Position numbers: made by a program. Positions 59,101 to 64,000 of a stretch of DNA of 64,000 bases are shown piece after piece (the first letter of the stretch is position 1; every line of letters begins with the position of its first letter). This DNA comes from Escherichia coli. Lineage in GTDB: Bacteria > Pseudomonadota > Gammaproteobacteria > Enterobacterales > Enterobacteriaceae. The stretch is taken from NCBI RefSeq assembly GCF_003334305.1, contig NZ_QOWS01000004.1; one strand, 5' to 3'.

Positions 59101-62100
59101 TGGTGTTTGGCACTGTTCATCCGCAATCTGTTGATGCGCTGTTTGAAGCCGCCAGTCATATCAATATGCGTATGATTGCCGGTAAGGTGATGATGGACCG
59201 CAACGCACCGGATTATCTGCTCGACACTGCCGAAAGCAGCTATCACCAAAGCAAAGAACTGATTGAACGCTGGCACAAAAATGGTCGTCTGCTATATGCG
59301 ATTACGCCACGCTTCGCCCCGACCTCATCTCCTGAACAGATGGCGATGGCGCAACGCCTGAAAGAAGAATATCCGGATACGTGGGTACATACCCATCTCT
59401 GTGAAAACAAAGATGAAATTGCCTGGGTGAAATCGCTTTATCCTGACCATGATGGTTATCTGGATGTTTACCATCAGTACGGCCTGACCGGTAAAAACTG
59501 TGTCTTTGCTCACTGCGTCCATCTCGAAGAAAAAGAGTGGGATCGTCTCAGCGAAACCAAATCCAGCATTGCTTTCTGTCCGACCTCCAACCTTTACCTC
59601 GGCAGCGGCTTATTCAACTTGAAAAAAGCATGGCAGAAGAAAGTTAAAGTGGGCATGGGAACGGATATCGGTGCCGGAACCACTTTCAACATGCTGCAAA
59701 CGCTGAACGAAGCCTACAAAGTGTTGCAATTACAAGGCTATCGCCTCTCGGCATATGAAGCGTTTTACCTGGCCACGCTCGGCGGAGCGAAATCTCTGGG
59801 CCTTGACGATTTGATTGGCAACTTTTTACCTGGCAAAGAGGCTGATTTCGTGGTGATGGAACCCACCGCCACTCCGCTACAGCAGCTGCGCTATGACAAC
59901 TCTGTTTCTTTAGTCGACAAATTGTTCGTGATGATGACGTTGGGCGATGACCGTTCGATCTACCGCACCTACGTTGATGGTCGTCTGGTGTACGAACGCA
60001 ACTAATAATAAAACTTTAACATCCTCGTGAGGACATCATTATGTCTGGAGACATCCTACAAACACCGGACGCACCAAAGCCACAGGGCGCGCTGGATAAT
60101 TATTTTAAAATTACCGCTCGTGGCAGTACCGTTCGTCAGGAAGTACTGGCTGGCTTAACGACCTTTCTGGCCATGGTTTATTCCGTTATCGTCGTTCCGG
60201 GAATGCTGGGCAAAGCAGGTTTTCCTCCCGCAGCTGTGTTTGTTGCCACCTGTCTGGTCGCGGGCTTCGGCTCGTTGCTGATGGGGTTATGGGCTAATTT
60301 GCCAATGGCGATTGGTTGCGCGATTTCCTTGACGGCGTTTACCGCATTCAGTCTGGTACTCGGGCAACAAATTAGCGTTCCTGTCGCACTGGGCGCGGTA
60401 TTTCTGATGGGCGTCATCTTCACCGCTATTTCCGTAACCGGTGTGCGTACCTGGATCTTACGTAATTTACCGATGGGTATCGCTCACGGTACAGGTATCG
60501 GTATCGGGCTGTTTCTGCTGCTGATTGCTGCTAACGGTGTGGGTATGGTTATCAAAAACCCGATTGAAGGCTTGCCAGTGGCGCTCGGTGCGTTTACCTC
60601 CTTCCCGGTGATGATGAGCTTGCTGGGGCTGGCGGTCATCTTCGGTCTGGAGAAGTGTCGCGTACCCGGCGGGATCTTGTTGGTGATTATTGCAATTTCG
60701 ATCATCGGCTTAATCTTTGACCCAGCGGTGAAATACCACGGTCTGGTGGCGATGCCAAGCCTGACTGGCGAAGATGGTAAGTCTCTGATTTTCAGCCTCG
60801 ATATTATGGGCGCACTCCAGCCAACTGTACTTCCGAGTGTACTGGCATTGGTGATGACCGCAGTGTTCGACGCTACTGGCACCATCCGTGCCGTCGCCGG
60901 TCAGGCGAATTTGTTGGATAAAGACAACCAGATCATCAACGGCGGCAAAGCCCTGACCAGTGACTCAGTAAGTTCAATATTCTCCGGCCTGGTGGGCGCA
61001 GCGCCCGCAGCGGTTTATATCGAATCAGCGGCAGGAACCGCCGCCGGGGGTAAAACAGGGTTAACCGCAACCGTAGTGGGGGCGTTATTCCTGCTGATTC
61101 TGTTCTTATCACCGCTGTCATTTTTGATCCCTGGTTACGCCACTGCACCCGCTCTGATGTACGTAGGTTTGCTGATGTTAAGTAACGTCTCGAAGCTGGA
61201 TTTCAATGATTTTATTGACGCTATGGCTGGCCTGGTGTGTGCCGTGTTCATCGTTCTGACTTGTAATATCGTTACCGGTATTATGCTGGGCTTTGTGACA
61301 CTGGTCGTAGGCCGCGTCTTTGCACGCGAATGGCAAAAGCTGAATATTGGTACGGTGATCATTACTGCCGCACTGGTCGCATTTTACGCGGGTGGTTGGG
61401 CAATCTAATAGATTCTCCGCGCCTTTCAGCGCGGAGATTTCTTTCACAGAGGATTCTCACCGCTGGCAACAATACGCTGCTGGCGGACTCGCCTGAGTTC
61501 TCTTTCAGTAAGCAACTGCAGCGCCTGTGTTGGGCAAGATTCAACGCAGGCAGGCCCCTCTTCCCGCTGTTCACAGAGATCGCATTTCACAATTTGTTGT
61601 CGGGTATCCCCCGGCAACGACTGAATGGTGATCATTCCAAACGGGCACGCACTGACGCAACTCTGACAGCCAATACAACGGGCAGAATTGGTCTGCACCA
61701 CCTGCTCGCCCATCGTCAGCGCCCCCACGGGGCAAGCGCCAACACAAGGGGCGTTTTCACACTGATGGCACATCACCGGCGCACTGATGCTGTCCAGTCG
61801 CTGTACCTTCAGCCGGGGTAAAAAGACATCGGCATTCAACTCCTGTTCTGAAGGGTGAGCGACCACACAGGCTACTTCACAAGTACGGCAGCCAATACAG
61901 TCAGCCGGATTAACGATAATTAACGATTTCATCACGATGCCTTCGTATCAAACAGAGTTAACATATCGCGCGCCGCCTGCCTTCCTGCGGCCATTGCAGT
62001 GACAACCAGATCCGCGCCATGAACTGCATCCCCACCAGCAAAGACTTTTTTCAGATGCGTCTGGGTAGGTAAATACCCGACGTCACCGGTTTGAATCAGG

Positions 62101-64000
62101 CCCCATTTATCGAGTTTAATTCCGCTGCCCTGCAACCACGGCATGGCATGCGCCTGGAAACCAAAGGCCATAATCAGAACATCGGCGGGCAATTCAAACT
62201 CTGAACCCGCTACCGGACGAGGACGACGGCGACCATCCGGCCCCGGCTCACCCATGGCGGTACGAATCAGGCCCACCGCAGTTAAACGCCCATCTTCGTC
62301 ACAAGCGATATATTGCGGTTGAACATTGAACTGAAACTCGACACCTTCCTCGCACGCATTAACCACCTCTTTGCGCGAGCCCGGCATACTGACTTCATCA
62401 CGACGATACGCGCAGGTCACGCTGGCAGCATTGAGGCGAATGGAAGTCCGCAAACAATCCATTGTCGTATCGCCACCGCCCAATACCACGACTCGCTTAC
62501 CTTCCACGTCCGTCAGCGGATACTCTTCAGACTCCGGCAATCCCATGAGCTGGCGGGTATGGGCAGTCAGGAACGGTAGAGCCTGAATGACACCGGGTGC
62601 ATCTTCATGCGGCAGATCTGCTCGCATCATCCCGTAAGTCCCCACGCCGATGAAAACTGCATCATATTCAGAAGTTAAATCGCTAAAGGTAATATCGCGG
62701 CCAATTTCACAGTTAAGATGAAAGTCGATTCCCATTGCGGTGAATATCTCTCGCCGCTGGCTTAATACCGTTTTATCGAGTTTGAAAGGAGGAATGCCAA
62801 AAGTCAGCATACCGCCAATTTCTGGATGGCGATCAAAGACATCAACCTGAACTCCCGCGCGCGCCAGAATATCAGCACACCCTAACCCTGCTGGCCCAGC
62901 GCCAATCACCGCCACTTTTTCGCTACGGGGAACAACTTTGCTGACATCGGGACGCCAGCCCATCGCCAGCGCGGTATCGGTGATGTAGCGTTCCAGATTA
63001 CCGATAGAGACTGCGCCAGAGTGATCTTTCAAAGTACATGCGCCTTCACAAAGACGGTCCTGTGGGCATACCCTGCCGCAGATTTCTGGTAAGGAACTGG
63101 TCTGGTGGCAAAGTTCTGCCGCTTCAATAATCTTTCCTTCCTGTACCAGACGGATGTAATCCGGAATAGCGTTATGCAGCGGGCAATGCCAGTTGCAGTT
63201 AGCTTTTTCGGCACAATAAACACAGCGGTCACTCTCATAAGTCGCTTGCAGTGGATCCAGCCCGCAATAGATTTCGCCAAAGTGGGTTTTCCGTTCACTC
63301 GCTGAAATTTTATCTGCGCCTTTACGCGAGTTAACGGGGAGCAACGCTGCACTGCGAGATGGCTGAGCGTCTGATGACGCTTTTCCTGCTGCCGTTTTGC
63401 GCTGGCGAGCCACCTTTATCCACTGTAACCCTTTATCGTCCATCAGTCGTAACGCCTGTGTTGGGCAGACTTCAATACAGGCTTGCGTGCCGGAACTGCG
63501 CTGGTTACAAAGGTCGCATTTCTGCGCAATCGTATCGACCATCTCAACGACGCCAAAGGGGCAAGCGATTGCGCATCTTTTACAGCCAATACATTTTTGC
63601 TCGTCCAGTTGTACGCTATCGGACTGGAAAGTCAGAGCATTAACCGGACAAGCCGTAACACAAGGGGCATTGTTGCAGTGATGGCAGGCCACCGGATTCG
63701 CAGCCTGGCCTTTCCCTACAACGTGGATACGCGGTCGAAAGTCACTGTGACTCAGCGGCCAGTTTTCTTGATTGTGTGCCACCGCACAGGCAATTTCACA
63801 AGCATGACAGCCTATACATTCCGCAGCTTCAGCAGCGATAAACTTATTCATTTGCATCCCTTTCATTTAATGAGTTATGTCTTCTCAAATTTCGCGATGC
63901 AATAAACGGGCATATATTAGGTAGCATGACCGTTTTAATTATAATTTTGCGACTGAGTTCAAATTATTGCCCCTCAATCTATGCCGCTTTCATTATTTCA

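Follow-up and report, generated by a model that had tools for sequence, protein, structure and literature searches.

[quoted passage not shown] Urate strongly induces ygfT, a member of the 13-gene YgeV iModulon that shows lower expression in a ygeV mutant, and has only a modest inducing effect on aegA. A preliminary description of the locus had proposed co-expression and a purine phenotype as checks; both are on record in this literature, and the genes, cluster membership, induction and genetic role of ygfT-ygfS are already published. Among the neighbouring enzymes, XdhD-YgfM is a urate reductase that converts urate to isoxanthine and YgfK is an isoxanthine reductase, both driven by NAD(P)H in vitro, rather than the hydroxylases for which they had been taken. 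The in vitro urate pathway reported in 2025 runs with NADH and without YgfT or YgfS, indicating that ygfT-ygfS is auxiliary.

Several described electron-transfer proteins resemble this pair. HycB (PDB 7Z0S chain B), HydN and YsaA share with YgfS a fold family with 16 Cys and four [4Fe-4S] clusters, and electrons from FdhF pass directly to HycB. Two-hybrid assays showed binding of FdhF by HydN, YsaA and HycB, and of these three proteins by AegA; an AegA-FdhF interaction was not found, and deletion of aegA did not lower the dye-linked activity of FDH-H. GltD-like modules occur in GltD, in NfnB, in the N-terminal half of DPD and in the middle part of YgfK. The NADP+-dependent FdhAB of Moorella thermoacetica (Moth_2312-2314) pairs an FdhF-type selenoprotein with a beta subunit for which 4Fe-4S, ferredoxin-type and NADP-binding domains have been described.

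Here we analysed ygfT-ygfS in a 64,000-nt stretch of E. coli contig NZ_QOWS01000004.1 (the window). The region is 100% identical to the chromosome of E. coli strain H15 and was found in 5267 of 5426 complete E. coli genomes. We see about an even chance that ygfT-ygfS encodes the electron carriers through which formate oxidation by FdhF is coupled, via NAD(P)H, to the reductive breakdown of uric acid.

Gene layout and domain architecture of ygfT-ygfS

ORF calling on the minus strand gave 61444..61935 (163 aa from a GTG) and 61932..63866 (644 aa from the first ATG), exactly where the preliminary description had placed a ferredoxin-like gene overlapping a GltD-like gene on the strand opposite ghxQ. 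RefSeq annotates ygfS at 61444..61932 (162 aa) and ygfT, also named uacF, at 61932..63851 (639 aa). A Shine-Dalgarno sequence, AAAGGGA, lies 5 nt 5' of the ygfT ATG at 63851, and the N-terminus MN(K/R)F... is kept in nine other genera, while the upstream ATGs are not conserved. The ribosome-binding site and the start-codon conservation place the start of ygfT at 63851 and not at 63866, the position first proposed.

The ygfT/ygfS junction (61930..61944, minus strand) reads cgTGATGaaa, with a 1-nt stop/start overlap (TGATG, 61930-61934; 4 nt with the GTG start) and a Shine-Dalgarno sequence, GAAGG, 7 nt upstream (61940-61944). An overlap of 1 or 4 nt is kept in Klebsiella, Pseudocitrobacter, Mixta, Serratia, Enterobacter, Pluralibacter, Cedecea and others, and a translationally coupled two-gene operon is the best explanation of this arrangement. 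ghxQ (60041..61408, plus strand) is convergent with ygfS, and a hairpin with a 9-bp G+C stem, tctccgcgc-N6-gcgcggaga, lies between the two stops (61414..61437). Its predicted fold reached -18.9 and -21.6 kcal/mol on the plus and minus strands, respectively, with z about -5. With its T-rich tail the hairpin is terminator-like for ghxQ, and transcription of ygfT-ygfS probably stops there too; an Rfam search of the region matched no family at E up to 0.1. At the other end, the pair does not close the purine cluster as had been thought, since uacT, the gene for the urate/H+ symporter, is divergent from ygfT and lies 435 bp beyond it, just past the window end. The surrounding cluster also contains the oxidative XdhABC.

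YgfS is a HycB/HydN-type ferredoxin with exactly 16 Cys in four ferredoxin motifs (C12-C22, C55-C67, C86-C96 and C117-C133), indicating four [4Fe-4S] sites. It matched Fer4_11 and related families in Pfam and HycB chain 7z0s_B at E = 8e-32, and in a trimmed alignment it was 44-47% identical to each of HycB, HydN and YsaA. The HydN model NF007658 gave 137 bits against a cutoff of 260, so that YgfS is a relative of HydN and not HydN itself. YgfT carries a second such domain at its N-terminus (aa 1 to about 140; 63432..63851, minus strand), with a Fer4_11 match, 16 Cys in motifs at aa 12-22, 56-68, 87-97 and 112-129 for four [4Fe-4S] clusters, and E = 3e-30 against HycB. The earlier reading of ygfT as a GltD-like flavoprotein was correct for the remainder of the protein and had missed this domain. 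All 16 Cys columns were invariant among HycB, HydN, YsaA, the N-terminal domains of AegA and YgfT, and seven S-type (YgfS) orthologs. HycB differs from both YgfS and the YgfT N-domain in having a Pro-rich loop of about 30 residues (about residues 101-132) that separates its third Cys motif from the fourth and touches HycF and HycE. Moreover, HycB passes electrons to a hydrogenase, whereas the downstream partner of YgfS is a flavoprotein.

The N-domain of YgfT is paralogous to YgfS, and DNA direct repeats about 1.92 kb apart link ygfS with the corresponding segment of ygfT. We rejected the idea that YgfS is a recent copy of this domain, because S-type proteins form their own clade and are only 43-49% identical to YgfT N-domains. 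The two clades branch in parallel, indicating co-inheritance as a unit.

GltD aligned over its full length with YgfT residues about 176-631 (6s6s_G, E = 2e-107), and its Cys clusters, FAD motif and NADPH motif are kept. The Fer4_20 domain (aa about 188-298; 62958..63290, minus strand; Pfam PF14691, E = 2.6e-36), whose coordinates were shifted by 5 aa to fit the 639-aa numbering, covers the two [4Fe-4S] sites of a GltD/DPD-type module, and its Cys-rich stretches align with GltD of A. brasilense. The FAD/NAD(P)H-binding domain (aa about 312-623; 61983..62918, minus strand; Pfam Pyr_redox_2) contains the FAD motif VAVIGAGPAGLGCA and the NADPH-site motif VVVLGGGDTTMDC...AYRRD. The FAD motif and the NADPH-site motif (GGGDTxMDC...YRRD) are kept relative to the NADPH-dependent GltD, and the residue-by-residue alignment extends to NfnB. 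The TIGR01318 model (gltD_gamma_fam) gave 844.2 bits (cutoff 482.95), which assigns the module to the GltD-like family, and NCBIfam NF009451 gave 1500.3 bits over residues 1-639 (cutoff 1154), which assigns the whole protein to the YgfT equivalog, with a 4-cluster ferredoxin domain followed by Fer4_20 and FAD/NAD(P)H Rossmann domains. The pair had been described as having no assigned function; RefSeq and NCBIfam in fact name YgfT "formate-dependent uric acid utilization protein". As judged from sequence, the fold evidence for YgfS and YgfT is decisive.

No gltB-like gene was found in the window or its flanks, and the pair is not a glutamate synthase (GltBD). In contrast to the known GltD-like systems, YgfT has no GltB, NfnA or DPD-type catalytic partner; its module is fused to one HycB-like domain and paired with a second. 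After GltD, the module is most similar to NfnB-type subunits (4ylf_B, 1e-85; 5jca_L, 2e-84), two separate ferredoxin modules are present, and a review has raised the possibility of bifurcation for AegA. These points would suit an Nfn-like bifurcation or confurcation, in which the FAD of YgfT couples NAD(P)H with two Fe-S branches of different potential, the N-domain and YgfS. However, an NfnA/PyrK-like FAD-[2Fe-2S] partner is absent from the operon and neighbourhood in E. coli and in the 13 other contexts surveyed below, so that the pair does not belong to NfnAB. Electron transfer from formate to NAD(P)+ is, moreover, already downhill and needs no bifurcation. We consider an Nfn-like mechanism very improbable.

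The E. coli paralog AegA (NF009408, "formate-dependent uric acid utilization protein AegA") has the same three-part architecture, and the AegA model gave 946 bits on YgfT, below its cutoff of 1003. aegA stands alone beside narQ, with neither a ferredoxin partner nor purine genes, whereas ygfT is paired and lies in the purine cluster. Elsewhere in Enterobacterales this split blurs: one AegA-scoring protein has an S-type partner in a non-purine context (L020), and another lies inside the urate cluster of Buttiauxella.

Conservation and gene neighbourhoods

The dN/dS was 0.07-0.08 for ygfT and 0.09-0.12 for ygfS, and ygfS was found in 5186 of 5426 complete E. coli genomes. With this dN/dS and 96% of complete genomes carrying the gene, a decaying ygfS was rejected for E. 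coli. ygfS is under more relaxed selection than its neighbours. Citrobacter sp. R56 has a clean ygfS deletion with an intact ygfT; this loss, together with the lack of a partner gene for E. coli AegA, indicates that YgfS is not strictly required.

Among the top 150 matches in representatives at 50% identity, one other full-length cluster had the YgfT architecture (P0121, AegA-type), suggesting that the family is narrow. The remaining matches in the top 150 were stand-alone or differently fused GltD-like proteins, and P0138, beside multihaem cytochromes, was set aside as an unrelated GltD-like protein. A peptide-pattern scan of genome contigs with YgfT returned 12 loci, its patterns being too specific. 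The context survey (14 contexts including E. coli) was built from YgfS homologs and the contigs encoding them.

ygfT-ygfS was syntenic with the purine/urate cluster in 12 of the 14 contexts. The pair is convergent with ssnA-ygfK in Klebsiella, Enterobacter, Pluralibacter and Kluyvera and divergent from a fused XDH in Mixta and Buttiauxella, and all XDH-like neighbours in the surveyed contexts carry an FAD domain. That ygfT-ygfS is a co-inherited unit across Enterobacterales is new here, as is the observation that a selenocysteine fdhF adjoins it in 5 of the 14 contexts (Klebsiella, Enterobacter, Pluralibacter, Serratia and Cedecea). On TIGR01591 the adjoining fdhF reached 1045 bits; its product shares 84-90% identity with E. 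coli FdhF, and codon 140 is TGA. The SECIS region after this TGA is conserved in the three loci read (E. coli, Klebsiella and Serratia). In Cedecea, fdhF is directly divergent from ygfT-ygfS and no purine gene was found within 10 kb. The E. coli fdhF is not linked to the pair and lies at 4.297 Mb. Part of the fdhF adjacency could be inherited synteny.

These neighbourhoods bear on a direct transfer, in which electrons from formate and FDH-H would pass along the Fe-S chain of YgfS/YgfT into the Fe-S/FAD chain of XdhD-YgfM or the Fe-S clusters of YgfK, bypassing free NAD(P)H. Such a wire would supply electrons of lower potential than NADH, and the potentials of urate/xanthine-type couples are close to that of NADH or below it, which counts in its favour. 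With the exception of Cedecea, ygfT-ygfS always lies beside an XDH-like Mo enzyme and/or ygfK-ssnA. According to the literature, YgfK reduction alone appears thermodynamically unfavourable, and Iwadate and Kato are reported to have considered direct transfer to uric acid as well. However, XdhD-YgfM and YgfK are each equipped with an FAD/NAD(P)H entry module and are active with NADH in vitro, the fdhF|ygfT-ygfS triad of Cedecea is free-standing, a purine enzyme being absent within 10 kb, and the intact NADPH-site motif of YgfT would be left without a role. We regard a direct wire as unlikely.

Candidate promoter and regulatory sites of ygfT

A sigma-54-type -24/-12 element, TATGCCCGTTTATTGCA, lies upstream of ygfT (63898..63914, minus strand) and is non-canonical, with TG for GG at -24. 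It exactly matches site OS32, which a sigma-54 ChIP-seq study assigns to ygfT, and its core, (Y)GC(C/A)C-N-TTGCAT, is kept in 14 loci from 12 genera while the flanks diverge. A CRP-like box, TTTGAACTCAGTCGCAAA (63946..63963, minus strand), lies 31 nt upstream of the -24 element and is kept across genera as TTTGA-N6-(T/C)C(G/A)CAAA; the sigma-54 promoters of ygeW and ygfK are likewise preceded by boxes of this type. Whole-window scans gave chance-level counts for the sigma-54 consensus (48 vs 41 expected) and for CRP-like boxes (17 vs 19.5 expected), and both sites were weighted solely by position and cross-genus conservation. A function of the CRP-like box would fit the glucose repression reported in the urate-pathway literature. 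A sigma-70 promoter scan of the region found 1 site vs 2.4 expected.

A candidate palindrome upstream of ygfT is common to the xdhA, ygeW and ygfK promoters. The synteny described above, the conserved -24/-12 element and this shared palindrome uphold the earlier view of an Fe-S/flavin unit tied to the purine/urate cluster. Within ygfT, a PurR-box-like sequence, GGGCAAGCGATTGCGC (63559..63574, plus strand), lies under a reported PurR ChIP-chip peak that was assigned to ygfT-ygfS. In the YgfT N-domain it overlaps the codons that specify the third Cys motif and may thus be conserved for coding.

A candidate route from formate to NAD(P)H

In the proposed route, formate would be oxidised at FdhF, and electrons from the FdhF [4Fe-4S] cluster would enter a HycB/HydN-type ferredoxin module. 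YgfS would be the likelier FdhF-docking adaptor, followed by the N-terminal domain of YgfT. Electrons would then pass over the two [4Fe-4S] clusters of the GltD-like module and FAD to NAD(P)+, and the resulting NAD(P)H would drive the conversion of urate to isoxanthine by XdhD-YgfM and the reduction and opening of the isoxanthine ring by YgfK with SsnA. Here we infer which way the electrons flow, that NAD(P)+ accepts them and that YgfS docks FdhF.

In favour of this model, both ferredoxin modules are members of the family that takes electrons from FdhF, as HycB does in formate hydrogenlyase (FHL) and HycB3/4 in hydrogen-dependent CO2 reductase. The reported need for formate and FDH-H, the two-hybrid binding of FdhF by the paralogs HydN, YsaA and HycB, the FAD and NADPH-site motifs kept in the GltD-like module and the adjoining fdhF of five genera also support it. 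The use of NAD(P)H by XdhD-YgfM and YgfK in vitro and the FAD domain of the XDH-like neighbours indicate that the urate pathway is fed by pyridine nucleotide. No further path by which formate could yield NAD(P)H is known in E. coli. Against the model, fdhF adjacency is limited to five of the 14 contexts; the paralog AegA gave no two-hybrid signal with FdhF, and the dye-linked FDH-H activity is not lowered by an aegA deletion; the in vitro urate pathway runs on NADH without the pair; and ygfS is deleted in Citrobacter sp. R56, and AegA has no partner gene. The canonical GltD direction, from NADPH through FAD to Fe-S, also stands against it, and sequence cannot give the direction of flow.

The preliminary description had favoured that canonical direction, with electrons passing from NAD(P)H through FAD to Fe-S/YgfS and on to a ferredoxin-type acceptor or the adjoining Mo enzymes, or being drained from the hydroxylases. 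The closest solved relatives (GltD at 2e-107, DPD and NfnB) do run from NADPH through FAD and Fe-S to a partner, and the presence of oxidative XdhABC in the same cluster suits it. However, it leaves unexplained both the reported need for formate and FDH-H and the adjacency of fdhF in five genera, and the adjoining enzymes already have NAD(P)H-binding flavin modules. We consider the GltD-like direction improbable. Genetics and fdhF adjacency point instead to formate and FDH-H as the electron source, and flow in YgfT is probably opposite to that in GltD, from Fe-S through FAD to NAD(P)+.

Extending the formate-to-NAD(P)H model, FdhF, YgfS and YgfT may form a soluble three-protein formate:NAD(P)+ oxidoreductase, a possibility that we place somewhat short of even. 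This would be a second physiological home for FdhF besides formate hydrogenlyase, with YgfS as a dedicated HydN-like docking adaptor. The fdhF|ygfT-ygfS module would be portable, free-standing in Cedecea and plugged into the reductive urate pathway, where formate from fermentation would pay the four electrons. In its logic the triad is similar to FdhAB of Moorella, a likeness of function ("works like") and not of membership; a literature search on homology between FdhB and YgfT gave a domain description of FdhB only.

By degrading urate anaerobically, gut bacteria influence urate levels in the host, and gout, and E. coli engineered to overexpress the urate cluster is under test as a uricolytic probiotic. 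Each urate costs the pathway four electrons. If ygfT-ygfS allows these to be paid with formate, this would account for the long-standing finding that fermentation of urate requires formate, and ygfT-ygfS and fdhF would be components to add when engineering flux. Through the pair, E. coli would also have a connection from formate to NAD(P)H, of which no other example is known in the species.

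Genomic organization of ygfS and ygfT

The ygfS and ygfT genes were located on the minus strand at 61444-61932 and 61932-63851, encoding proteins of 162 and 639 aa that RefSeq names '4Fe-4S dicluster domain-containing protein' and 'formate-dependent uric acid utilization protein YgfT', and that K-12 annotation lists as 'putative electron transport protein YgfS' and 'putative oxidoreductase YgfT'. Both genes had been described before; we found no test of ygfS function in the literature mentioning this gene. The region from 61300 to 64000 was 100% identical to strain H15 and to other strains. 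Among 5426 complete E. coli genomes, 5267 contained the region and 5186 contained ygfS.

The preliminary description placed both minus-strand ORFs correctly but missed the N-terminal domain of YgfT and the gene uacT, and started ygfT at 63866, the first ATG of its longest ORF. A predicted start at 63851 is supported by the Shine-Dalgarno sequence AAAGGGA, 5 nt before it, and by the N-terminus MN(K/R)F..., which is conserved in nine other genera, whereas the ATGs upstream of 63851 are not conserved. The stop codon of ygfT shares a base with the start codon of ygfS in TGATG, and GAAGG lies 7 nt before this junction; an overlap of 1 or 4 nt was retained in all ortholog pairs examined. The convergent ghxQ is separated from ygfS by a 9-bp G+C hairpin between the stop codons (-19 to -22 kcal/mol, z about -5, on both strands). 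An Rfam search of the ygfS-ygfT region returned no family, and a sigma-70 promoter scan gave nothing above chance. The pair had been taken to close the purine cluster, but uacT, encoding a urate/H+ symporter, lies divergently 435 bp beyond ygfT, just outside the window. Elsewhere in the window, at about 16700-30230, we observed a degenerate ETT2-like type III secretion cluster in which the annotation gives frameshifts or internal stops for many genes (orgA/mxiK, sctI, prgH/eprH, escU, yscQ and others).

Domain composition and co-inheritance of the pair

YgfS contains exactly 16 Cys in four ferredoxin motifs, and residues 1 to ~140 of YgfT form a second 16-Cys, four-cluster domain, followed by a Ser/Ala/Lys-rich linker of ~45 residues and a GltD-like module (Fer4_20, then Pyr_redox_2; residues ~176-631). 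Together, the two proteins carry motifs predicted to bind ten [4Fe-4S] clusters and one FAD. The two ferredoxin modules are also visible as direct DNA repeats ~1.92 kb apart, between ygfS and the 5' part of ygfT. The best match of both was HycB of formate hydrogenlyase (7z0s_B; E = 8e-32 for YgfS and 3e-30 for the YgfT N-terminal domain), followed by HycB3/HycB4 of hydrogen-dependent CO2 reductase, and all 16 Cys columns were invariant among HycB, HydN, YsaA, the N-terminal domains of AegA and YgfT, and seven YgfS orthologs. Both modules lack a HycB loop of ~30 residues that touches HycF and HycE in the formate hydrogenlyase structure.

The GltD-like module aligned over its full length with GltD, which is NADPH-dependent (E = 2e-107), and its Cys clusters, FAD motif (VAVIGAGPAGLGCA) and NADPH-site motif (VVVLGGGDTTMDC...AYRRD) are all retained. 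After GltD, its closest relatives were NfnB-type subunits, and an Nfn-like bifurcating enzyme was considered; however, no NfnA-like partner was found in the operon and neighbourhood of E. coli and 13 other contexts, and we regard this as the least probable arrangement. YgfT scored 1500 bits on its own NCBIfam equivalog (cutoff 1154) and fell below the AegA cutoff. NCBIfam has no model dedicated to YgfS, whose best matches were the N-terminal parts of AegA (168 bits) and YgfT (140 bits), with HydN at 137 bits, short of its cutoff of 260.

A YgfT-type gene was directly followed by a YgfS-like (S-type) ferredoxin gene in 13 of the 14 contexts examined. YgfS identity is at least 72% within Escherichia and falls sharply to 50-60% in other Enterobacterales, where the proteins are still positional orthologs. 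In a neighbour-joining tree, S-type proteins and YgfT N-terminal domains formed separate clades with parallel branching, indicating that the two are anciently distinct and have been inherited together. Purifying selection acts on ygfS (dN/dS 0.09-0.12) and on ygfT (0.07-0.08), with weaker constraint than in their neighbours, most of which gave 0.014-0.06 (ygfM up to ~0.1). The exception to the pairing was Citrobacter sp. R56, in which a clean deletion (L007, 11917-11975) replaced ~525 bp containing ygfS with ~50 bp bearing a new hairpin; ygfT, 80% identical and scoring 1275 bits with the YgfT model, is intact there, as is every neighbour. Separately, in Escherichia sp. MOD1-EC7003 (L010, ~10876), ygfT stops after codon 292 with unrelated sequence beyond, and ygfS and ghxQ are absent from the locus. 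Three clusters of truncated YgfS (P0026, P0029 and P0088; 89-109 aa, 97-98% identical to YgfS) recur across many contigs, some of them complete E. coli genomes, which suggests nonsense or frameshift ygfS alleles in some lineages.

The two-gene module was also found outside purine clusters. At locus L020 (8001-10544), a protein scoring as AegA equivalog (1100 bits) precedes a 170-aa S-type ferredoxin, the pair lying between dcrB/yhhS-like and unrelated genes in a non-purine neighbourhood (ftsY...tusA...dcrB). E. coli AegA has no partner gene, and the urate-cluster protein of Buttiauxella (L015) scores as AegA (1007 bits) and not as YgfT (915 bits). Outside Escherichia, the names AegA and YgfT do not follow genomic context. 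We also observed stand-alone GltD-like proteins in L011, L012 (Pantoea, Dickeya), L013 and L014 (Enterovibrio), 54-60% identical to the YgfT C-terminal module, with neither an N-terminal ferredoxin domain nor an S-type neighbour.

Expression of ygfT with the urate pathway

Papers that cite Iwadate and Kato (2019) report that E. coli requires formate, FDH-H and either aegA or ygfT to degrade urate anaerobically, that urate induces ygfT, and that ygfT expression is reduced in a ygeV mutant. Liu et al. found strong urate induction of ygfT and ygfK and only modest induction of aegA, and ygfT belongs to the 13-gene YgeV iModulon. The proposed link of the pair to the purine cluster was thus borne out for ygfT by both co-expression and, as far as the citing papers relate, purine phenotype, and the earlier view that it has no assigned function is outdated for this gene.

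Sigma-54 ChIP-seq assigned a site to ygfT, with others at xdhA, ygeW and ygfK. The ygfT site, TATGCCCGTTTATTGCA (minus strand, 63898-63914), departs from the canonical form in having TG for GG at -24. Across 14 loci in 12 genera, the core and the TTGCATCGC that follows it are nevertheless conserved, while the sequence around them diverges. A CRP-like box at 63946-63963, 31 nt upstream of the -24 element, is equally conserved. Similar boxes (TGTGA-N6-TCACA type) lie upstream of the sigma-54 promoters of ygeW (39195-39212) and ygfK (48813-48830; near-perfect, TGTGAGTTCATTCACA), so that all three stand 31-61 nt upstream of -24 elements. Input from cAMP-CRP at these putative boxes would fit the reported repression of the urate pathway by glucose; CRP action at sigma-54 promoters, if true, would be unusual.

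In most ygfT orthologs checked, a palindrome, T(A/C)TCA-N3-TGA(T/G)A, precedes the promoter element by ~110-200 bp (in E. coli, past the window end); it was not found in Cedecea, Yokenella and Trabulsiella with up to one mismatch allowed. The form TATCA-N3-TGATA also occurs upstream of the xdhA, ygeW and ygfK sigma-54 promoters (33203-33215, 38944-38956, 39042-39054 and 48710-48722) and inside dpaL (40886-40898). The window held 8 matches against 2.6 expected, a number reached in 1 of 100 shuffles. We infer that it is a candidate binding site of the sigma-54 activator YgeV. A PurR ChIP-chip peak has been assigned to ygfT-ygfS, and a PurR-box-like sequence lies beneath it inside ygfT (63559-63574). 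This sequence falls on the codons for a Cys motif that recurs in ygfS (repeat family D1), and its conservation may therefore be coding rather than regulatory.

fdhF genes beside ygfT-ygfS and the direction of electron transfer

In Klebsiella (L002, 3772-5919), Serratia (L019, 3997-6144), Enterobacter (L028, 3811-5964) and Pluralibacter (L030, 3784-5931), a minus-strand ORF of 715-717 codons between the XDH-like genes and the permease adjoining ygfT proved to be fdhF (TIGR01591, 1045 bits against a cutoff of 666; 86-90% identity to E. coli FdhF). In Cedecea lapagei (L031, LR134201.1), fdhF (5356-7503, minus strand; 84% identical) is directly divergent from ygfT-ygfS. This free-standing triad (5356-10477) still has the conserved promoter elements of ygfT, and the 10 kb flanking it on each side contain no purine or urate gene. 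All five fdhF genes have an in-frame TGA (selenocysteine) at codon 140, which in Klebsiella, Serratia, Enterobacter and Pluralibacter stands in a CARV-U-HGPS context; in Klebsiella and Serratia, where the DNA past this codon was read, the SECIS sequence is conserved. Adjacency was thus seen in 5 of 14 contexts; E. coli fdhF is unlinked, at 4.297 Mb.

These results bear on the direction of electron flow. In the model we favour, formate would be oxidised by FdhF, the electrons would enter a HycB/HydN-type ferredoxin module and pass along the YgfS and YgfT Fe-S chain to FAD, and FAD would reduce NAD(P)+, supplying NAD(P)H to XdhD-YgfM and YgfK. The published genetics, the HycB/HydN family to which the two ferredoxin modules belong, the NADPH site kept intact and the neighbouring fdhF, also in the Cedecea triad that lacks purine genes, all argue for this route, whose direction and acceptor we infer, and we give it roughly an even chance of being correct. 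The opposite flow, from NAD(P)H to ferredoxin, had been proposed in the preliminary description; FDH-H genetics and fdhF adjacency indicate that this is probably reversed, and we consider it improbable. Direct wiring of electrons into XdhD or YgfK is unlikely, though less so: FAD/NAD(P)H modules of their own are present in the pathway enzymes and in all XDH-like neighbours observed, which favours the formate-to-NAD(P)H route. In the pathway reconstituted by Li et al. (2025), XdhD-YgfM used NADH in reducing urate to isoxanthine, which YgfK and SsnA reduced and opened with NAD(P)H; YgfT (UacF) was named there only as an uncharacterised oxidoreductase.

A further argument for the formate-to-NAD(P)H route is that E. 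coli is not known to have any other link from formate to NAD(P)H. Within it, YgfS is likelier to be the FdhF adaptor, since in two-hybrid assays its small paralogs HydN and YsaA bind FdhF, while AegA binds HydN, YsaA and HycB but not FdhF. Such binding would explain how AegA and Citrobacter YgfT work without a dedicated partner.

We found no mention of the fdhF adjacency in the literature on ygfT and the urate pathway. The neighbouring fdhF ORFs carry no Pfam family in the context tables, possibly because of the in-frame stop, and the link is easily overlooked in automated neighbourhood analyses. The adjacency is the most informative new result, since it supports the FDH-H link from gene neighbourhood and independently of the genetics already published.
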